A stretch of DNA of 64,000 nt from positions 1 through 64,000 of IMG/VR virus record IMGVR_UViG_3300022821_000015; one strand, written 5' to 3'. Position 1 is the first letter of the stretch. Each line of letters begins with the position of its first letter. Below are positions 1 through 29,440 of this stretch, piece after piece. The translations under genes were made by a program, and so were the position numbers. Source of the stretch: a virus. The notes below the pieces were generated by a model. The model worked only from the letters and a program-made list of their open reading frames with translations, ran no database searches and had not been told where the DNA came from.

Positions 1-556
1 GGACCAACTCATCAACCGTCTTCTTGTATGTGTCAATGGGCAGGATACCATCACTGTATCGGGTGTTTGCATTTAGTTTACATGCACCTTTTTCGGCAGC
101 AAGGTCTGCGCTTGCTTTGATAAGATAGTAACTCCACGCTTCGGCATACTCGTCAATCAACTCCAAGTTTGGTTCAGAATATGATGAGTCGTGCTTGGCA
201 AGGAAGTATGCTAGGTTGATGATCCCTACACCTAATGGTCTATAACCTTTTGAATGTAGTTCAGCAGCAAGCACTGGATACTTCTGGTAATCAAGTAATG
301 CGTCTAGTCCACGCACCGCAAGTTCACAAGGACGCTTGAAGTCTGATGGTTCTTTAACATTTCCCCAATTCATAGCCGACAATGTACATAAAGCAATCAA
401 TCCATCCTCGTCTTTTAAATCTATAAGTGGCTTAGTTGGTAGGGCAATCTCTTGACAGTTATGAACCAACACATCGTTAGCAAAAAAGTTTTCTGTGTCT
501 TTTACTGTTATGTCGTATACGGCTTCTCGTTTTGCTAATTTAGTTACTTTTGCCAT
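1..556 (-). CDS. nrdA: NrdA fragment C (partial): split-intein IntC (33 aa) + C-terminal extein of ribonucleotide reductase class Ia alpha
   Basis: Not in the ORF track. Hand translation from ATG 556: MAKVTKLAKREAVYDITVKDTENFFANDVLVHN|CQEIALPTKPL...IALCTLSAMNWG...RPLGVGIINLAYFLA; runs off the window edge. Confidence 0.93.
   Translation of the reverse strand, partial: MAKVTKLAKREAVYDITVKDTENFFANDVLVHNCQEIALPTKPLIDLKDEDGLIALCTLSAMNWGNVKEPSDFKRPCELAVRGLDALLDYQKYPVLAAELHSKGYRPLGVGIINLAYFLAKHDSSYSEPNLELIDEYAEAWSYYLIKASADLAAEKGACKLNANTRYSDGILPIDTYKKTVDELV
458..556 (-). mobile_element. Split intein C-half (NrdA site 3)
   Basis: VYDITV...NFFANDVLVHN followed by +1 Cys. Confidence 0.93.
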
Positions 557-2426
557 TTATCATTCTTCCTTGTTTCCATCCAGTTTCTAAATGTTTATTC
601 AACTTATCTTTATGAATTCTCTTGTTCTCATCGTCTTTAGTAACCCACGTATATTGCTTATTAGTATCCGAGGCATATTTATCCTTTATGTCTAGAAATG
701 ACAATAGAACATCAGTTTCCGTTAATTCCCTAGCAGCAACATACCCTCTGTTTTCTGTCCAAAACAAATGATCGCCCGTGCAGACAACTGACTGCATACC
801 ATCATCTGTTTCAACCTTATAAAGCTCCGCGTCTGGATTCGTCATACCAAACGCAGTTATAGATTGAAACTCAACGGTATTTGTCTTGGTATTATATGAC
901 TTAACCAAAACTGTTTCATATTTCTTAATGAATTTATCTACTTCGTGAATTTCGATTGAAAAGATTTCATTATCACATTTTACCGTTATCTTAGTATCTG
1001 CTACCAGACAAAGATTACTCATACGCACTGCGGCTACATCTGGTTTGAATGATGAATGGTCGTTGACGTTATCTACATTCATAAGATATATACGACCAGT
1101 ATTCTTTCGTTCTTCCATAAATGCAGAGAACAGTTCTGATGCTTTTACACGTTTCTTGCGAATGTAGTTATTCTTTTCAGCACGTTCGTATAGTTCTTTG
1201 AACTTATCTTGATCATTAAAGAAGGATTCGTATAGGCCCGGAACATCGCTTGGGCTGAATAATGTAATATCGGCATTTTGGATAAGGCGCTCATAAAACA
1301 ACTTACTGAACTGCACTGAGTAATCAATGTGGCGCACACGATTATCGTCGGTGCCTTTGTTGTTCTTTAGCACGAGTAGGTCTTCTACTTCATAATGCCA
1401 GATGGGATAATGAAGTGTTGCACTATTATGAACAACCATCATCTTATCTGGATTTTTCCCGGCGTAATAATTCTCGGTAACATCTACTGAAAAATCAGCA
1501 AATTCCGGGGTAATATTGGCAGGACGAAGTTTTGTGATTGTAGATTTTTCGGTGTTTGTCCAACAAATATCCCCAACTACAAGATGTTCGGCATCCACAT
1601 AATCCCAAATTTCGTTTCTAAAGACAAGGGTTGGATGAATCGTGCTTGTAATGACAGATGTGCCATTTTCAAGCATGATTTGTATTTGATTTGTTGATGG
1701 CACAAACGGTCGCATGGTGGCTTTAACAAAGTTATATTCATCCATGCCTGATTCAATATTTCGGGAGAGGACATACTCACCCTCACTGACATTTGTTATT
1801 TTTGTATTATTCGTTAATAAACGCATTTGCATTGATGCATTTTTTATTTCCTCATTTGTCATATTGGCCAATGTATCTATTAAATGTTTTACACTAACCT
1901 CATTGTTATTTATACGAATAGTGTCGGAAATATTATAAAATTTTCCTGCATGTTCTAACCCAGAACACGTTTTTACATAAGAATCTGCGCTAACACACCC
2001 ACCACGCACACCGCCTTGTGAATTATGAGTGAGTACCATTTCACCATCGTGTGTCTCGGACGCAAAGAAAGTGTGAGTGTCCTCTACTGTAATATCAATG
2101 TAATCTTCTGTTTGATTATCGTTTTCACATGAATAAAGATAGGTAACTCCGTTGTCAGTGATGATTTCATCAAGCTCTGTTATTTCATCTGGTTTCTTCT
2201 CTACCACATTGCTACCCAGTTGAATCATGATAGGGTGGTTTTCTGAACAGTGAATTACTGTTCCATTAGTAAATTCCAACTTTCGTTGGGCAGACTTTTG
2301 AACTATGGTGTTCCATACATCTGTAACTTGTTTGAAAACAATAATATCTTTATCTTTATCTTTTGTTTTTATTTTCATACCCGCCCGAAGGTCCGATAAT
2401 TTAATTCTCTTAGATTTTTTTGTCAT
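540..2426 (-). CDS. nrdA: NrdA fragment B: IntC(135 aa)-SQGGVRGG-cis intein(191 aa)-extein(138 aa)-IntN(156 aa)
   Basis: Exteins SQGGVRGG, SATLHYPIWH...LKNNKG...ERKNTGRIY...MSNL match class Ia NrdA; likely start is ATG 2426 (MTKKSK) rather than 2465. Confidence 0.93.
   Translation of the reverse strand: MTKKSKRIKLSDLRAGMKIKTKDKDKDIIVFKQVTDVWNTIVQKSAQRKLEFTNGTVIHCSENHPIMIQLGSNVVEKKPDEITELDEIITDNGVTYLYSCENDNQTEDYIDITVEDTHTFFASETHDGEMVLTHNSQGGVRGGCVSADSYVKTCSGLEHAGKFYNISDTIRINNNEVSVKHLIDTLANMTNEEIKNASMQMRLLTNNTKITNVSEGEYVLSRNIESGMDEYNFVKATMRPFVPSTNQIQIMLENGTSVITSTIHPTLVFRNEIWDYVDAEHLVVGDICWTNTEKSTITKLRPANITPEFADFSVDVTENYYAGKNPDKMMVVHNSATLHYPIWHYEVEDLLVLKNNKGTDDNRVRHIDYSVQFSKLFYERLIQNADITLFSPSDVPGLYESFFNDQDKFKELYERAEKNNYIRKKRVKASELFSAFMEERKNTGRIYLMNVDNVNDHSSFKPDVAAVRMSNLCLVADTKITVKCDNEIFSIEIHEVDKFIKKYETVLVKSYNTKTNTVEFQSITAFGMTNPDAELYKVETDDGMQSVVCTGDHLFWTENRGYVAARELTETDVLLSFLDIKDKYASDTNKQYTWVTKDDENKRIHKDKLNKHLETGWKQGRMINGKSN
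543..1010 (-). mobile_element. Split intein N-half (NrdA site 3, at SNL|C) with a C-terminal endonuclease remnant
   Basis: CLVADTKITV block A, CTGDHLFWT block B, no terminal HN; tail WVTKDDENKRIHKDKLNKHLETGWKQGR. Confidence 0.9.
1425..1997 (-). mobile_element. Contiguous intein without a recognisable endonuclease domain (NrdA site 2)
   Basis: CVSADSYV...TSTIHP...DFSVDVTENYYAG...VVHN|S. Confidence 0.9.
2022..2426 (-). mobile_element. Atypical split intein C-half (NrdA site 1)
   Basis: Has block B (CSENHP) and blocks F/G (YIDITVEDTHTFFA...LTHN|S) but no N-terminal Cys. Confidence 0.9.
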
Positions 2427-2574
2427 TTTTTTTATACCTTTTGATTTCTTCTGTAGTCCATTCATGAATTTTTGTCATATGATTAGTAAAATTTCCAGCC
2501 ATAAATTTGTGACCATCTTTGCATCCAAAGGGACATGATATTTTATGTTTCTCTTGAACTCCGGGCATATTCAT
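2410..2574 (-). CDS. 54-aa C2H2 zinc-finger-like protein between the NrdA site-1 intein halves (probable endonuclease remnant)
   Basis: Hand translation MNMPGVQEKHKISCPFGCKDGHKFMAGNFTNHMTKIHEWTTEEIKRYKKNDKKI; GGGAG SD upstream. Confidence 0.6.
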   Translation of the reverse strand: MNMPGVQEKHKISCPFGCKDGHKFMAGNFTNHMTKIHEWTTEEIKRYKKNDKKI

Positions 2575-2579
2575 TGCAC

Positions 2580-3518
2580 TTACTCCCCCTTGCGTTCCAA
2601 ATCATCAGTTTCATCAAGAATTTCCACATAAGTATCTGGTTTTAGACAACATGATTTTACTGCGGTTTGGAAATGCTTAAAGAACGGAATGACACCTGTA
2701 TGATATGCATCGCCATTACGAATAGACGCACCGATAGCACGAATACTACCAGCGCCGATACCGATGCCAGCCTTTTGTGATACATATTTCACAATAGCGG
2801 AAGATGACGCATTAATGGAATCCAATGAATCGCCTGTTTCGATTAACACACACGAACTGAATTGTCGTTGCGGTGTTCGTACACCAGCCATAATAGGTGT
2901 AGGCAACGAGATATCAAATGTTGATATAGCATCGTAATAATCTTTTACCCATTGTAGTCTGTCTTTTTCATAATGACTGAATAGGCTCATTGCTACTAGC
3001 ATATAGCACATTTGTGGTGTTTCGAAGATTTCTTTAGTGACACGGTTTTGGACAAGATACTTGCCTCTAAACTGTTCCATAGCGGCGTATGTTAGGTCAT
3101 TATCTCGGACGTGTCGGATGTATGAGTTTAGTAGTTCATATTCTTTTTCATCGTATGCAGATAGAAGTTCGGGGTCATAAAAACCACTCTTAACATTCTT
3201 CTCTACCAGTTGACGCAATGCCCACGGTTCATATTGTCCGTATACTTGTTTACGTAGATGATAGTTAATCAGACGACCGCCAACATATTGGTAGTTTGGT
3301 GTCTCTTCGGAGATTAAATCTGCTGCTGATTTGATTAATGTTTCTTGAATGTCGGTTGATTTAATGCCATTATAGAATTGGATTTGGGAACGAATTTCTA
3401 CTTCTGAAGGCGACACTCCTGTAATGCCATCACACGCATTGAATACTACCTTATGTAGTTTTTCAATATCAAGTGTTTCTTTATCCCCTGTGCGTTTTGT
3501 TACAGTTATGTCTGTCAT
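2580..3518 (-). CDS. nrdA: NrdA fragment A (ATP cone + N-terminal extein) ending in a 22-aa IntN
   Basis: VTKRTG ATP cone, ETPQ, PTPIMAGVRTPQRQFSSC, AGIG, AVKSC|CLKPDTYVEILDE. Confidence 0.95.
   Translation of the reverse strand: MTDITVTKRTGDKETLDIEKLHKVVFNACDGITGVSPSEVEIRSQIQFYNGIKSTDIQETLIKSAADLISEETPNYQYVGGRLINYHLRKQVYGQYEPWALRQLVEKNVKSGFYDPELLSAYDEKEYELLNSYIRHVRDNDLTYAAMEQFRGKYLVQNRVTKEIFETPQMCYMLVAMSLFSHYEKDRLQWVKDYYDAISTFDISLPTPIMAGVRTPQRQFSSCVLIETGDSLDSINASSSAIVKYVSQKAGIGIGAGSIRAIGASIRNGDAYHTGVIPFFKHFQTAVKSCCLKPDTYVEILDETDDLERKGE
2583..2648 (-). mobile_element. Atypical short split intein N-half (NrdA site 1)
   Basis: CLKPDTYVEILDETDDLERKGE then stop; block A only. Confidence 0.88.
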
Positions 3519-4321
3519 ATTAATCCTATCTTTTTATATCGTTCTATTGTCATATCCAAATACTCAAGAGAGTTATCAATTCCAATATATTTTCTACCAT
3601 TATTTACGGCGGCGATCCCTGTCGTGCCACTACCAGAAAACGGGTCAAGAATAGTATCCCCTTCTACTGATACCAGCTTCAACATCCATTCTGCCAATGG
3701 CACTGGATATGCTGCTGGATGGCTATGTTCTTTTTTGGCATTATTTGATACAGAGATTTCAACATAATCTTTACATCGGGTAAACCCTGCCTGTGGTTCT
3801 TTATCATCGGTGAACCCACTGCCCCATTGTTTTAGTGATTGTCCAACATCTTGTTTACGAAACGAGATATTTTTGGAGAATGTGCCGTTAGCCTTTGGGT
3901 ATGCGTTCGGTTTGCCTGTGTTAGAAAACCACAGAATTCTTTCCCATGATCGTCTTGGTCGGTTGATATTGCCGACAGGGGGGCCATCTGGTTTGATCCA
4001 AATAAGTTCTTCACATTCTTTCCATCCACTTTCTCTAACAGCCAGTCGTGTTCTCAAAACGTAATCTGATATTTCGCCTTTTGAAATATTTTCACGAATG
4101 TTAATCAAACAACTTCCTGTGTCGGAAATCAACGGCTTTACCTTACTCATCCAATCGGTTGTCCATGCTGGATATTTATCTTCACTCACTCCATTATAGA
4201 ATTTTTTGCGCTGTTCGGCATAAGGCGGCGACGTTACCAACGAAGTGAAACTTACATCACTGATATCAGTAACATCGCCATGATAAAGTGTTATATTGTC
4301 CGTTTCGAATACTTTTCTCAT
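3515..4321 (-). CDS. DNA amino-methyltransferase, beta class (N4-C/N6-A)
   Basis: TSPPY catalytic motif precedes HPA and ILDPFSGSGTTG SAM-binding motif. Confidence 0.92.
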   Translation of the reverse strand: MRKVFETDNITLYHGDVTDISDVSFTSLVTSPPYAEQRKKFYNGVSEDKYPAWTTDWMSKVKPLISDTGSCLINIRENISKGEISDYVLRTRLAVRESGWKECEELIWIKPDGPPVGNINRPRRSWERILWFSNTGKPNAYPKANGTFSKNISFRKQDVGQSLKQWGSGFTDDKEPQAGFTRCKDYVEISVSNNAKKEHSHPAAYPVPLAEWMLKLVSVEGDTILDPFSGSGTTGIAAVNNGRKYIGIDNSLEYLDMTIERYKKIGLI

Positions 4322-5082
4322 TATTTTTTCATCTTTGTTATAATCATTTTTAGATCATCTGGGTTGTCGAGATTGACGGTCGATTTATAGTTTTTCCAAT
4401 ATTTTTTGTCAGTAAGTCTATACTGAACCCTTAAACCGACTGACCGAACTTTTAAGTTTAATTTCTTGCTCAAGCGTGAACCACTAGGTCTTGTTTCAAT
4501 CTCAGATTTATTAGGACCATCAAAAAGCGGTGTCCCTAAATTTAATGTATCAGCACCGACGTGATACAGCCCAAGACCGCCGATTTGAATATAGTTATCG
4601 CCCTTTGACATCAAATAATTTCTGATGAATGTGCAATCTTCGTATTTCACGTGTGTAGTGCAATCTTTGCGAATTGGATTCTTATTGAACTTATCCCACG
4701 CTTCTACATCTACTGTAAACGGAAACCCGTCATTTTTGATTAGACTAACATCGTTGACGGATTCGACTAACTTTGCATAAGATTCAGTTTTATTATTTTC
4801 ATTAAGCACGGGCAACACGTTGTCACCAAGTGGATTGATTGCGTTTAATGAATTATCGCTGGTTTTGTATTGGATAGATGTTCCGCCCAACTGAGCATTC
4901 ATATTTAATTTAAGTTCTAGATTGAGAGCGTCGCCAGACTTGGTATTCATAATGGACAAGTCGTGGTTCTTAGAGTTGCCACCTGCGAGTATTGACATAT
5001 CGGTAGTTAAGCCCAAGCTAGAAATAAGCGAGGTGCCGCAAGCTACAACTGTATCTTCGTAAGTAAAACCTTTATTTTTCAT
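4321..5082 (-). CDS. Putative PD-(D/E)XK restriction-endonuclease-like protein
   Basis: GFTYE...HDLSI...NLELK pattern; TAATG overlap with the methyltransferase. Confidence 0.5.
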   Translation of the reverse strand: MKNKGFTYEDTVVACGTSLISSLGLTTDMSILAGGNSKNHDLSIMNTKSGDALNLELKLNMNAQLGGTSIQYKTSDNSLNAINPLGDNVLPVLNENNKTESYAKLVESVNDVSLIKNDGFPFTVDVEAWDKFNKNPIRKDCTTHVKYEDCTFIRNYLMSKGDNYIQIGGLGLYHVGADTLNLGTPLFDGPNKSEIETRPSGSRLSKKLNLKVRSVGLRVQYRLTDKKYWKNYKSTVNLDNPDDLKMIITKMKK

Positions 5083-13175: not shown

Positions 13176-13523
13176 AAGGATTGGAAAGTATATGCCATCA
13201 ATAGCATCATACTCAAGATGCTCGGCTACCTGTATGCGATTATTACCGATACGAATCAAATAAATGAAACCATCCGAATGAATGGTAGGCGGATTAATGA
13301 ACTTCCAGTCTTCTCTGTAACTAAAGCAACCAGTAAATGTATTATCCCACCATTCAGGTGTCACTCGGTCGTACAATACGGGATACCACATACCATCATT
13401 TGTTATACTCGGAAGGTCACGATGTTTCCACCGTTCATCCATATGATAACTAGCCAATGATACTTGCGATAATGGAACAGGCTTTATATCGAGATGTTGG
13501 TAAAGACAATGAAGGGTTTTCAT
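13107..13523 (-). CDS. Hypothetical protein (ParB/Srx-like features); C-terminus altered by the duplication
   Basis: GMWYPVL...GNNRIQVAEHL. Confidence 0.55.
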   Translation of the reverse strand: MKTLHCLYQHLDIKPVPLSQVSLASYHMDERWKHRDLPSITNDGMWYPVLYDRVTPEWWDNTFTGCFSYREDWKFINPPTIHSDGFIYLIRIGNNRIQVAEHLEYDAIDGIYFPILKDLIEFNQRIKTERPYRVQSAY

Positions 13524-15265
13524 AAATTCAAAACCCACACACCGTTCCCACAGTCCCATATACGATCATACCCATGTGCCCTCATATTTTCCCATTCGGT
13601 TTGTGCTGGATTAAAGTTTGCTAATATATTTGACAATTTATGCTTTTGAAATACATGACGGCTGTATAGACTTTTATAATCATTTGTATATCTATAATTC
13701 GGCGATGAATTGTTAATAAATGTGAAGCCCAATGATTCATATAATCCACCATTAGACCATCTTCTATCACTATATGATATAATAGACTTAGGTGTATAAC
13801 TATTAATAAAGCTCTTTAAAAGCTTTCCCGCACCACCAACAACAGTCATATCACAAATTGTACAAAATCTCAGCATTTCATAATCATATTTTTTATTAAA
13901 CCTAGATTTACCAAAAGTCATCAATGATACAAGTTTGTCATCATAATACAGCCCAATACGTACTGATGATCTAACATTTCCCTGCAAATGATTATCGTTT
14001 AAAAAGACCTTTGACTCACGCGAAGATACTTGTTTAATATTGCATTTTCTCGCATATATAACACTCTGTCTCCCCATAATAGAATTTAATCTAGATTTAA
14101 CTATATGTTTATTGTCATTCCATTCATTGTCTAAAATATGAATAAGACGGATTCCTTTTTTGGAACATTCTTCAGTTTTGCTTAAATGATATTTTCTATT
14201 TTTGCCATTATTTTCAGAATGCCAGTATATACCATTGCATTCGATTGCTATATTATGTTCTGGGATAAAAATATCTATTTCCAATGGTGGTATTAAATAT
14301 CTATTGTTCAAACTACCATCCACAAATTCTCTTACTTCGGATTCCCACATAGATGATGTAATAGGAAAACATTGTGTACATCTTGGCATTTTACCAGAAA
14401 TTAAATTATCAACGAATATATTACTACATTCAATACATTCCCATTCATACTGATGATGCACCCCTTCAAATTCAGTAAACCGTGGGCGTAATTTACCTTT
14501 CACCCTATCACCAATAGTTGTCATGAAGTCAGATTTCTGTTTAGTTAAATATACATCTGATGAAAAATAGTTATCGGCATTATAACGATTATTGATTGTT
14601 TCTTTAATTTTATCTTGTATGGCGGGTGACTGACTTGGCCACATCGTTCCGAATCTTTCTTGATTAGTGTTCATACTCTTTTCTTGAACACTAATCAATG
14701 ATTGTGGATTTGGTATTCCGTATCTTTCAATGGATGTTTGTCGTTTTTTATTTTTAATAGTTTCGAGTTGCGATGGATTATTCACTCCGTGCGTGTCAAT
14801 AAATGATTTTTTAATTTTCTCTTTTATTTTTTCCGACTGAAAAGGGTTATCAACTCCATATTTAGATTGAACGGTCGCTGTTCGTTTTTGCTGAACGTCG
14901 ATAGATTTAGATGGATTATCAACCCCGTATTTTTCACGACATGACTTTAATCGTTTGTTTCGGGTTGGGGTCGCTGCCGCTCCGCATTTCACCGAACAAT
15001 AATCGTTAAATTTTTTTGATTTGAATTTAACGGGGGCGGCACATACCCCACATACCGGGCGGGTCGTTATATTATGTTCCACACAATATACCCGAACGGC
15101 AAGAGAATCATTGGATTCAAGAAATGAGGTTGCTGAATATATAGATTTATATAAATCGGTTTCCAGAAACGAACCTTTTGAAATATTCCCATTAATTTTA
15201 CCAGCGGCATTTATTAAACCGGGATATTCTTTTATTTTCTCTATCAAACTGGTTGATGGTGTCAT
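13520..15265 (-). CDS. Free-standing putative homing endonuclease (Vsr-like core, KYGVDNP repeats)
   Basis: YGVDNPS repeats; LEIDIFIPEHNIAIECNGIYWH; C-terminal ARKC...HLQG...SYSDRRWS...RIWDCG. Confidence 0.82.
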   Translation of the reverse strand: MTPSTSLIEKIKEYPGLINAAGKINGNISKGSFLETDLYKSIYSATSFLESNDSLAVRVYCVEHNITTRPVCGVCAAPVKFKSKKFNDYCSVKCGAAATPTRNKRLKSCREKYGVDNPSKSIDVQQKRTATVQSKYGVDNPFQSEKIKEKIKKSFIDTHGVNNPSQLETIKNKKRQTSIERYGIPNPQSLISVQEKSMNTNQERFGTMWPSQSPAIQDKIKETINNRYNADNYFSSDVYLTKQKSDFMTTIGDRVKGKLRPRFTEFEGVHHQYEWECIECSNIFVDNLISGKMPRCTQCFPITSSMWESEVREFVDGSLNNRYLIPPLEIDIFIPEHNIAIECNGIYWHSENNGKNRKYHLSKTEECSKKGIRLIHILDNEWNDNKHIVKSRLNSIMGRQSVIYARKCNIKQVSSRESKVFLNDNHLQGNVRSSVRIGLYYDDKLVSLMTFGKSRFNKKYDYEMLRFCTICDMTVVGGAGKLLKSFINSYTPKSIISYSDRRWSNGGLYESLGFTFINNSSPNYRYTNDYKSLYSRHVFQKHKLSNILANFNPAQTEWENMRAHGYDRIWDCGNGVWVLNL

Positions 15266-15297
15266 ATATTTTATCTGCTTCTTTGAAATGAACAAAC

Positions 15298-27719: not shown

Positions 27720-28571
27720 CTATTGCCAGTCCACTTTTTCGATTGAATATTCATATTGCGCTTCTTTGTAGAATTTCTTCCTTTGGGTAAGATGCCGCTT
27801 CGCAAACTTACACGTTGACGTAACGTCCCAAATCTGCACGAAATCCTTGTCTTCCGCTTTACGGATACCCCGCCCAATACTCTGGATAACACGAATGAAA
27901 CTCTTGCCCGGTTCCAACAACATAAGATTAAAGATGCGAGGTATGTTGATACCCACAGCAGCAACGCCATAGGTGGCAACGATAATCTTATTAGTTCCTG
28001 TTTTAATCTCGTCATAGGTTTCCTTTCGCTTATCGCCTTTTGTAGCACCACTTACGAACATAGCATCAAAGCCGTTATCGTTTAGTTTTACTACAATATC
28101 TTTACCCGCCTGAACACGGTCTACAAGGACAAGCATATTACCACTTTTACTTACCGTTGCAATAAGACCCGCCAAATAGTTCTGACGTTCGTTATCTGTT
28201 AACAAATATTTCAGTTCGCTTTGGTAGTTCGGGTATTCTTTAATGTCTATTAATTGTACCACATTTACATGGCAATTTGCAAGCACTCCTTTCTCCTGAA
28301 GTGATTTTGCTGATACCTCATTCAATACAGGACCGATAGCACATAGGATACCAGCCTTTGCTAACTCTTCTTTCGGAACGGTTCCCGTCAATCCCCAACG
28401 AACAGGAATATGTGCCATTGGACCCGTTAGAATATTTTTCAGCATATCAGCTTTTGCACCGTGACAGTTCGATACGACTACGTTGTTCGCCACATAATTG
28501 TGGTTATTCTCCACATGAAGATTGTATGTTATTGCTGGCTTTTTTATTATTATCTTAGATTTCATTTTCAT
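27720..28571 (-). CDS. uvsW: UvsW helicase C-part: IntC (35 aa, 28467-28571) + C-extein
   Basis: TYNLHVENNHNYVANNVVVSN|CHGAKA...GLTGT...IQSIGRGIR. Confidence 0.92.
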   Translation of the reverse strand: MKMKSKIIIKKPAITYNLHVENNHNYVANNVVVSNCHGAKADMLKNILTGPMAHIPVRWGLTGTVPKEELAKAGILCAIGPVLNEVSAKSLQEKGVLANCHVNVVQLIDIKEYPNYQSELKYLLTDNERQNYLAGLIATVSKSGNMLVLVDRVQAGKDIVVKLNDNGFDAMFVSGATKGDKRKETYDEIKTGTNKIIVATYGVAAVGINIPRIFNLMLLEPGKSFIRVIQSIGRGIRKAEDKDFVQIWDVTSTCKFAKRHLTQRKKFYKEAQYEYSIEKVDWQ

Positions 28572-29440
28572 CGTATATTACTCACCTTATCCTTTATGCT
28601 GTCTGGTAAATCAGTTAGCATTATCTCATCTATATTATGCTTGAACCACGACTGCGATACAATAGCGTATCCCCATCCCATCTGATTAGCCCATTCCGTA
28701 GCATATTTTTCCTTGGCACGGGATTTATCATTCATACACTCGGTAGGCTTTATCTCTATCAGTATACCAAGTGCTTCATTGTGAAAGTCAACTATGTAAA
28801 TGTGCTCTACACCATCATGCATATATGGTATTCTAATTTTCTCGTATTCATAATCACTGTTAATCGAGTGCCATGCAGCCTCCCACGATGATCTATATTT
28901 CATTCCGTTGTATTCTACTTGCCAGTGTGTCCAACTATTATGAATATTAGGAGTGAATTTCCCAGTCCTAATATTTTCCTTGACGCGAACAGATGATGCG
29001 TGTCGCTGTGCGATGGTAGGTGAAATACCGTACATCGGATTACCTTTCCCGATTCTATCGGTGGATAATTTCATCAACCTATCATCATTCTCCTTCGTCA
29101 ATCCTTTATTCCACGGAACAGTCCCGGTATGGCTATCCTTATTCCACGGCGTACCAGTGTTAAGGTTTTTTCTTATCTTGTCGCCGTGCTGTCTCTGACA
29201 TTCACTTCCGCCAAGGTTTGCCGCCGAAGACTTGCGTTTAGAAATATATTCGGCACGCAATGTTTGATTTTGGTGATATGCAATATCAATGTCCCAACCT
29301 GCTCGGAATCTATTCCATAGCAGGTAACCCTTCTCTACAATACCGGTGGACGTTTCGAACAACCCATCTGCCATCTGTGTCACTGTAATCTCAAATCCTG
29401 CGTCTTCCAACCTTTTGTTCCAATCAACTTTTTTTGCCAT
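28568..29440 (-). CDS. Putative homing endonuclease between the UvsW intein halves (NUMOD3-like repeats + TnsA-like PD-(D/E)XK)
   Basis: PWNK repeats, GKGNPMYG; YRSSWE...YIVDF...LIEIKP. Confidence 0.85.
   Translation of the reverse strand: MAKKVDWNKRLEDAGFEITVTQMADGLFETSTGIVEKGYLLWNRFRAGWDIDIAYHQNQTLRAEYISKRKSSAANLGGSECQRQHGDKIRKNLNTGTPWNKDSHTGTVPWNKGLTKENDDRLMKLSTDRIGKGNPMYGISPTIAQRHASSVRVKENIRTGKFTPNIHNSWTHWQVEYNGMKYRSSWEAAWHSINSDYEYEKIRIPYMHDGVEHIYIVDFHNEALGILIEIKPTECMNDKSRAKEKYATEWANQMGWGYAIVSQSWFKHNIDEIMLTDLPDSIKDKVSNIR

Follow-up and report, generated by a model that had tools for sequence, protein, structure and literature searches.

A phage ribonucleotide reductase gene in three pieces, with inteins on both sides of specificity loop 2

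We analysed a 64-kb stretch of viral DNA (hereafter the window), which is the first 64 kb of the 78-kb IMG/VR virus record IMGVR_UViG_3300022821_000015 (record completeness 22% according to CheckV). At the start of the window, nrdA, the gene for the large subunit of ribonucleotide reductase (RNR), is spread over three minus-strand open reading frames (ORFs A, B and C) with RNR large-subunit domains. Intein 1 is split between fragments A and B, intein 3 is split between fragments B and C, and intein 2 is contiguous within fragment B. We favour, with a probability of roughly 0.8, the reading that an uncultured large phage here carries a functional class Ia nrdA, which three inteins have colonised and whose pieces would be joined into one chain. 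Inteins 1 and 2 bracket specificity loop 2 of the enzyme, and intein 3 precedes the radical Cys; therefore, neither site would exist until all three inteins have been removed. A preliminary description of the DNA had proposed that the active enzyme needs two trans-splicing events and one cis-splicing event, a proposal supported by the presence of matching intein halves in the right order and of the catalytic residues.

Three ORFs and one predicted product

Fragment A (312 aa, 3518-2580; all features of the locus are on the minus strand) begins with an N-extein comprising NrdA residues 1-290 (2649..3518; Pfam PF03477, PF00317 and PF02867). It covers the ATP cone, the all-alpha domain and the beginning of the barrel and contains the FSSCVLIE Cys, the counterpart of E. 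coli C225; its residues 4-290 align with residues 5-292 of E. coli NrdA (phmmer, E = 1e-114). The N-extein ends in AVKSC and is followed by CLKPDTYVEIL, an acidic tail and a stop codon. Fragment B (641 aa) runs to 540 from ATG 2465, the start chosen by gene callers, which adds 13 basic residues, or from ATG 2426, to which the starts of relatives point. In agreement with the preliminary description, it consists of the C-terminal half of intein 1 (IntC1), the octapeptide SQGGVRGG, intein 2, a middle extein and the N-terminal half of intein 3 (IntN3). The middle extein (138 aa, SATLHYP...RMSNL, 1011..1424) corresponds to E. coli NrdA residues 301-438 and matches residues 299-441 in phmmer with an E value of 3e-56. 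The A/B split is real, because three in-frame stops (TAA, TGA and TGA) separate the two fragments. Stop-codon read-through or an alternative genetic code joining A and B was rejected: the two fragments share a frame, but the stops between them are three in number and of two kinds, and the frame between them codes for no intein sequence.

Fragment C (363 aa in all) runs from ATG 556 off the edge of the window at base 2, where the record itself begins; the remainder was taken from a contig of 100% identity (L005, 889-1980), which contains the full 363-aa fragment followed downstream by nrdB at 3700-4803. ATG 556 overlaps the stop codon of fragment B by 17 nt and has the Shine-Dalgarno (SD) sequence AAGGAAG 8 nt upstream. 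The start at ATG 556 and the matching IntC behind it, both anticipated in the preliminary description, are borne out: the fragment opens with the 33-aa C-terminal half of intein 3 (IntC3, MAKVTKL...NDVLVHN, 458..556; Pfam PF14890 positions 125-155), which ends in VLVHN. The C-extein begins with CQEIALPTKP, and its first 152 of 330 residues lie in the window (2..457; phmmer to E. coli NrdA 438-590, E = 3e-44). In this alignment its first Cys falls on E. coli C439, the radical Cys of NLC-x-E, again as described beforehand; the junction NL|CQE retains N437, C439 and E441, and the LCTLSA Cys corresponds to C462.

We built the intein-free product in silico by cutting at the intein boundaries. The exteins (290 + 8 + 138 + 330) add up to a 766-aa NrdA of about 87 kDa, which we compared by tblastn with the 80 nearest IMG/VR loci, chosen with fragment A as query. 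The nrdA gene is uninterrupted in 76 of these 80 loci, with ~70-75% identity to the product in the rows inspected. Residues 1-766 align with the uninterrupted genes as one ungapped high-scoring segment pair; therefore, the splice junctions leave neither gap nor duplication. The pieces are likewise colinear with E. coli NrdA (residues 5-292, 301-438 and 439-590), so that the spliced protein aligns throughout, as the preliminary description required. The only splice scar is the +1 nucleophile of intein 2, a Ser at the position of Ala301 in E. coli. The Pfam domains, together with FSSCVLIE, SNL|CQE and LCTLSA aligned to their E. coli residues, identify the product as a class Ia NrdA. LYYFNT and a C-terminal CxxC (CDAC) are present in the L005 copy of fragment C and represent the C-terminal Tyr-Tyr and Cys pair of the E. 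coli enzyme.

By the colinearity of the flanking alignments, the octapeptide SQGGVRGG (1998..2021) corresponds to E. coli NrdA S293-G300 and is the core of allosteric specificity loop 2. Loop 2, of which S293, Q294 and R298 are part, relays the signal for allosteric specificity to the active site (bioRxiv 10.1101/2021.07.31.454598).

In the mechanism that we propose, IntN1, the N-terminal half of intein 1 at the end of fragment A, one beta strand with an acidic tail, would dock into the basic-headed, near-complete IntC1 of fragment B. Class 1 splicing, through a Cys1 thioester, attack by Ser+1 and Asn cyclisation, would then join ...AVKSC to SQGGVRGG. Intein 2 would excise itself, joining ...VRGG to SATLHYP, while IntN3 of fragment B would pair with IntC3 of fragment C, joining ...RMSNL to CQEIAL. 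The product would be the 766-aa NrdA, and only through splicing would its loop 2 and its thiyl-radical motif NLC-x-E be rebuilt. All three reactions would take place in the infected cell, and the closely spaced inteins 1 and 2 may have to splice in a fixed order, as the preliminary description suggested. Inteins at both ends of loop 2 would allow a clean test of whether the order or timing of splicing gates enzyme function.

No minus-strand terminator was found in 1-4400, and a promoter scan gave no more sites than in shuffled sequence. Since A, B and C share a strand, their stop and start codons overlap or abut, and no terminator separates them, they are probably co-transcribed and in part translationally coupled. 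In L005, a 407-aa Cys-rich ORF (1987-3210), by eye radical-SAM/SPASM-like, lies between fragment C and nrdB; it is not at the corresponding position in a sister allele of the locus (IMGVR_UViG_3300031269_000767, L004).

Three inteins with a complete set of catalytic residues

Intein 1 is inserted after E. coli C292. IntN1 (22 aa, 2583..2648, stop 2582-2580) comprises Cys1 and the first beta strand, CLKPDTYVEIL, followed by the acidic tail DETDDLERKGE; its counterparts in alignments are the 12-aa IntN of Acinetobacter phage KARL-1 (MH713599.1, L007) and, in the contiguous relatives from Vibrio phage SUMAE and Shewanella phage Thanatos-2, the first 11 residues. In IntC1 (135 aa from ATG 2426, 2022..2426), a basic head is followed by block B (CSENHP) and block F (YIDITVEDTHTFFA), and the end reads THN. 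Placed end to end, the two halves match, column for column, the contiguous 144-146-aa nrdA inteins of Thanatos-2 and SUMAE, and blocks A, B, F and G are conserved relative to both contiguous and split relatives. With Cys1 (CLKPD), CSENHP, YIDITVEDTHTFFA, THN and a +1 Ser, intein 1 is a class 1 intein; with a 22-aa IntN1 and block B within the 135-aa IntC1, it is atypically split. The tail of IntN1 is acidic and the head of IntC1 strongly basic; opposite charges on paired halves are usual for split inteins.

Between the halves of intein 1 lies a 54-aa ORF (2410..2574) with a strong SD sequence (AAGGGGGAG) and a C-x3-C...H-x4-H motif. Its sequence matches residues 231-278 of a 281-aa endonuclease-like ORF in another phage contig (IMGVR_UViG_3300025425_001250, L102) with 56% identity (E = 1e-18); the 281-aa ORF is related to the KARL-1 homing endonuclease and occupies the same intein 1 gap. 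In addition, the 54-aa ORF shares 52% identity with the C-terminal end of KARL1_59, a homing endonuclease of PHROG 3339. Because it matches the tails of endonucleases that fill the same gap in L102 and KARL-1, the 54-aa ORF is a 3′ remnant of a homing endonuclease that has decayed to its zinc-finger tail. We rejected an independent small gene, as the ORF has no Pfam or PHROGs match and matches an endonuclease tail instead. The ORF overlaps ATG 2426 by 17 nt and may couple the translation of fragment B. Elsewhere in the window, an intact 591-aa homing endonuclease (13520-15295, minus strand; phrog_3339, E = 3e-139; also phrog_559, HNH) belongs to the same PHROG as the decayed intein 1 gene and has no zinc-finger tail. 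It was considered as a trans-acting partner of intein 1 and rejected, since the repeat region is all that it shares and there is no zinc-finger match.

Intein 2 (1425..1997) is a contiguous 191-aa mini-intein, CVSAD...MMVVHN, followed by a +1 Ser. Its AlphaFold2 model (mean predicted local distance difference test score, pLDDT, 84.5) matches solved inteins in Foldseek with a probability of 1.0, indicating a HINT (Hedgehog/intein) fold. In an alignment with 20 relatives, the block B His (STIHP), the block F Asp and the terminal HN are invariant or nearly so. Together with Cys1 (CVSAD), the VVHN end and the +1 Ser, these features make intein 2 a class 1 intein.

Intein 3 is a canonically split class 1 intein, with Cys1 (CLVADTK), CTGDH, DITVKDTENFFA, LVHN and a +1 Cys, and Pfam PF14890 (Intein_splicing) matches both of its halves. 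The IntN3 core (110 aa, CLVADTK...SFLDIKD, 681..1010) also matches the NrdJ-1 split intein in the PDB (E = 6e-13), and its DNA is 100% identical to that of L004. The insertion site, immediately before the thiyl-radical Cys, is that of NrdA-1 to NrdA-7 and the commonest RNR intein site (Dassa et al. 2009, PMC2677866). A 46-aa tail containing GWKQGR (543..680) follows the core in frame. In the L004 equivalent of this tail, a 29-nt deletion and a 4-nt insertion end the frame early. The tail is evidently leftover sequence without constraint, possibly an endonuclease remnant. It was not accepted as a recognisable endonuclease domain: its sole family match is a weak one to phrog_29145 (E = 8e-5), and no significant phage match was obtained.

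Alternatively, selfish elements might have overrun an nrdA that no longer functions and is decaying, in a phage that uses the host's or another RNR. Although endonuclease genes are visibly decaying here, the genome is incomplete and contigs break inside the locus in three assemblies, we consider this improbable, given that the 766 extein codons contain no stop or frameshift and every catalytic residue checked is present. Furthermore, nrdB lies just downstream in L005, identical proteins are found on many contigs, and the ratio of nonsynonymous to synonymous substitution rates (dN/dS) of the exteins relative to L004 is 0.02-0.03, reflecting purifying selection. No second class I or class II RNR large-subunit gene (PF02867) was found in the 78-kb record or in an overlapping 121.5-kb contig (CheckV completeness 34%).

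Still less probable is a non-covalent assembly of the fragments, in which the intein halves merely dock and no peptide bonds are made. A precedent is phage Aeh1, whose split nrdA (NrdA-a/NrdA-b) reportedly works without splicing (cited in PMC2677866 and PMC3045599), but its break does not coincide with an intein site, whereas the breaks here fall inside loop 2 and right before the thiyl Cys. About 150-190 unexcised intein residues would then occupy the active and specificity sites. Moreover, all three inteins retain Cys1, the His of block B, block F, the terminal His-Asn and a nucleophile at +1.

Several observations weigh against a functional, splicing-dependent nrdA. With the HINT domain of intein 2 placed just 8 residues away from the intein 1 +1 Ser, one of the two reactions could be slowed or blocked. 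Fragment B could start at either 2465 or 2426, and neither position has a good SD sequence. Inteins 2 and 3 are recent arrivals, so the low extein dN/dS mostly predates them. Finally, ~22% of the genome is covered (~56% with the overlapping contig), which leaves room for a second RNR.

Co-existing alleles and the origin of contiguous intein 2

At least three alleles of the locus co-exist, represented by the window, by P0124 and by L004/P0125. The exteins of L004 are 81-83% identical to those of the window in DNA sequence, with a synonymous divergence (dS) above 1.3 and zero frameshifts, while inteins 2 and 3 are 99.4-100% identical, and the change in identity falls exactly at the splice junctions. 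Near-identical inteins in diverged exteins imply that the inteins moved recently between diverged nrdA genes. L004 is without intein 1 (AVKSC|SQGG is continuous), and a 376-nt insert between GCAA and ATGCG divides its intein 2 exactly at Q57/M58; the insert contains a 131-aa Ros/MucR-type zinc-finger ORF, the IntN2 stop and a GGAGG before the IntC2 ATG. L004 is accordingly laid out as a predicted three-piece nrdA too, with a different pair of split inteins (2 and 3). P0124 has no intein 1 and a split intein 2; its residues 1-258 are identical to fragment A of the window, and its residues 259-290 carry four L004-type substitutions. This 32-residue segment looks like a conversion tract beside the intein 1 site.

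The co-existence of alleles and the ends of contigs inside the locus raise the question of an assembly chimera, which we regard as very improbable: the exact 641-aa fragment B is found on 4 contigs from JGI, Logan, ENA and MetaClust, the exact fragment A on 10, and L005 and L006 have an identical B/C junction. The exact 54-aa ORF recurs on 4 contigs and its 52-aa form on 8, and such recurrence on independent assemblies argues against an assembly artefact. Three assemblies have a contig end inside the locus: in fragment C for the start of G000, in intein 2 for the end of G001 and in the middle extein for the end of G003. These breaks are consistent with assembly-graph forks at allelic intein polymorphisms.

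Among the 1.84 billion representatives searched, we found 57 relatives of intein 2. The best matches mostly start at query residue 57-66, that is, they are IntC halves, with a Met at the position of Met58 in the window. The closest relatives (60-64% identical) are split at this same point, Q57/M58. Contiguous relatives are few, and none has a Met at position 58. The ORF between the intein 2 halves has 296 aa in L106, 131 aa in L004 (a match to the first 126 residues of the 296-aa ORF, 44% identity, E = 7e-39), and is gone in the window, where the joint shows ATGCAA/ATGTAA microhomology. Taken together, the split relatives, Met58, the decay series and the microhomology lead parsimony to favour a split ancestor fused by deletion in the window lineage. 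The contiguous intein 2 of the window is therefore probably a re-fused split intein, with Met58 as the old start codon. The alternative is a long co-existence of contiguous and split forms with gene conversion between them.

Re-fusion of intein 2 would reverse the textbook direction, which leads from mini-intein to split intein, and to our knowledge a step from split to contiguous is not part of current homing-cycle models. In the history suggested by the relatives, each split intein would once have held a free-standing homing endonuclease gene between its halves. This gene would have decayed to the 54-aa zinc-finger ORF at site 1 and probably, judging by position, to the in-frame tail at site 3, while at site 2 it would have been wholly deleted, fusing the halves into one cis intein. 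With intein 1 present or absent, intein 2 split or fused, and near-identical inteins within exteins of 82% identity, the alleles capture the homing cycle as it proceeds.

Relatives in metagenomes and known systems

We counted gene layouts in the best 120 90%-identity database clusters retrieved with IntC1 and intein 2. An IntC1-type half stands at the start of 98 of the 120 clusters, most of which share the basic head (an M-x-K-T-K-K-I-Q-I-K-D-L-like opening). Forty-four of these 98 also end in an IntN at the thiyl site and are hence middle pieces of nrdA genes in at least three pieces, and one such IntC-extein-IntN cluster contains 73 contigs; another 46 are uninterrupted to the C-terminus, corresponding to two-piece genes. 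On these layouts, the predicted three-piece nrdA is not unique to the window genome and is widespread in metagenomes. Four-piece genes also exist. In L102 (4124-10592), three split inteins divide nrdA, and the gaps hold full-length endonuclease-like ORFs of 281, 304 and 327 aa, the second with a weak HNH match; in L032 (4917-9069), intein 1 is contiguous and there are further breaks.

On the N-terminal side, 47 metagenomic NrdA fragments (within P0132-P0198) end in AVKSC or AVKS followed by an IntN of the type C[LV]-x-P-[DE]-T-x-V-E with an acidic end. These matching IntN halves have 13-37 aa, with 13 and 14 the commonest lengths and nine clusters at 13 aa. No report of this NrdA family of intein 1 was found in the searchable literature.

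Inteins on both sides of loop 2 are rarer, with three cases found: the window, P0094, whose site 2 holds an unrelated cis intein, and a phage of the Ga0136588 metagenome. In the latter, L107 (4642-4776), P0268 and L106 (2-280) overlap at 100% identity and yield an IntC1-SQGGVRGG-IntN2 ORF, pieced together from fragments of one metagenome and not present on any single contig. The ORF has ~215 aa with loop 2 as its sole extein, and it is followed by the 296-aa zinc-finger ORF and then IntC2. In this phage, loop 2 is apparently carried alone on its own polypeptide and would be inserted by two trans-splicing reactions, which, if true, would be nature's version of the peptide insertion engineered through tandem trans-splicing. 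That both this arrangement and the healing of a split intein 2 in the window are correct has, in our estimate, slightly better than even odds.

The locus is a variation on the theme of fractured genes and split inteins and not a new kind of system. As in the fractured genes of the Global Ocean Sampling (GOS) data (Dassa et al. 2009, PMC2677866), a phage-type nrdA is broken before the thiyl-radical Cys by a split intein, and the pieces lie on one strand and in order; an endonuclease gene lies between the halves there, and remains of one lie here. The GOS genes consist of two pieces with one split intein each, whereas the window has two split inteins and one cis intein in three polypeptides. Furthermore, the endonuclease genes of the window are remnants, and intein 1 is split near its N-terminus and not at the canonical site. 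The gaps between the split halves in the window hold just the 54-aa zinc-finger tail at site 1 and the unconstrained 46-aa tail at site 3; one fractured locus, gp41-7, is listed without an endonuclease (PMC2677866).

Inteins that are split atypically and have a short IntN are known from AceL-TerL (25 aa), GOS-TerL (37 aa), VidaL and PolB16 OarG (PMC11766414, PMC10189870), the last of which, with 15 aa, has been called the 'shortest characterized' (PMC10189870). As in intein 1, their IntN comprises block A only and their IntC comprises blocks B, F and G. Intein 1 differs from them in its host protein, NrdA, in its site after E. coli C292 and in relatives with an IntN of 12-13 aa. The family is abundant, and its natural IntN halves of 12-37 aa, some below the characterised minimum of 15 aa, could serve as peptide-sized tags, predicted to work beside a second intein.

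The cultured T4-like phage KARL-1 (1222-4941 of MH713599.1) has a 12-aa IntN, CLTPDTKVEILV, and a 299-aa homing endonuclease between the intein halves, annotated only as two nucleoside diphosphate (NDP) reductase genes and a hypothetical protein. Its nrdA (KARL1_58/59/60) resembles the window in the intein 1 family, the structural position of the split and the presence of an endonuclease between the halves, and the zinc-finger tail of this endonuclease matches the 54-aa ORF. In contrast to the window, KARL-1 nrdA is in two pieces, its endonuclease is intact, and the insertion point lies one residue away (S|C...N|C, +1 Cys).

Two further phages have inteins at the same sites. In Vibrio phage SUMAE, NrdA contains two cis inteins at the intein 1 and intein 3 sites of the window, within one open ORF. 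In Campylobacter phage IBB_35, three inteins are annotated in NrdA, at or beside sites 2 and 3, and the thiyl-region intein possibly lies one residue more C-terminal than intein 3; stops follow the start of the second intein, and only the first is readable as contiguous. Unlike the window, neither phage occupies both sites flanking loop 2.

Engineered tandem trans-splicing, or 'protein transposition' (PMC7210297, PMC12707363, PMC11185735), likewise joins an IntC(A)-insert-IntN(B) piece between two flanks, the intein on the N side being atypically split and the one on the C side canonical. That system is man-made, whereas the one in the window is natural, and its middle piece contains an extra cis intein. 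In the searchable literature, we found no natural three-piece ligation, only the engineered method; ligation of three segments by two orthogonal split inteins would, to judge from the layouts above, be natural and common in phage metagenomes. The value of the locus lies in the loop-bracketing intein pair, the atypically split NrdA family, the alleles with intein gain and endonuclease decay, and the probable re-fusion.

A further intein C-half (28467-28640, minus strand; PF14890 positions 98-155, E = 6.5e-6) lies elsewhere in the window, near where the preliminary description had pointed out a split intein in UvsW, and the genome therefore carries fractured genes beyond nrdA.

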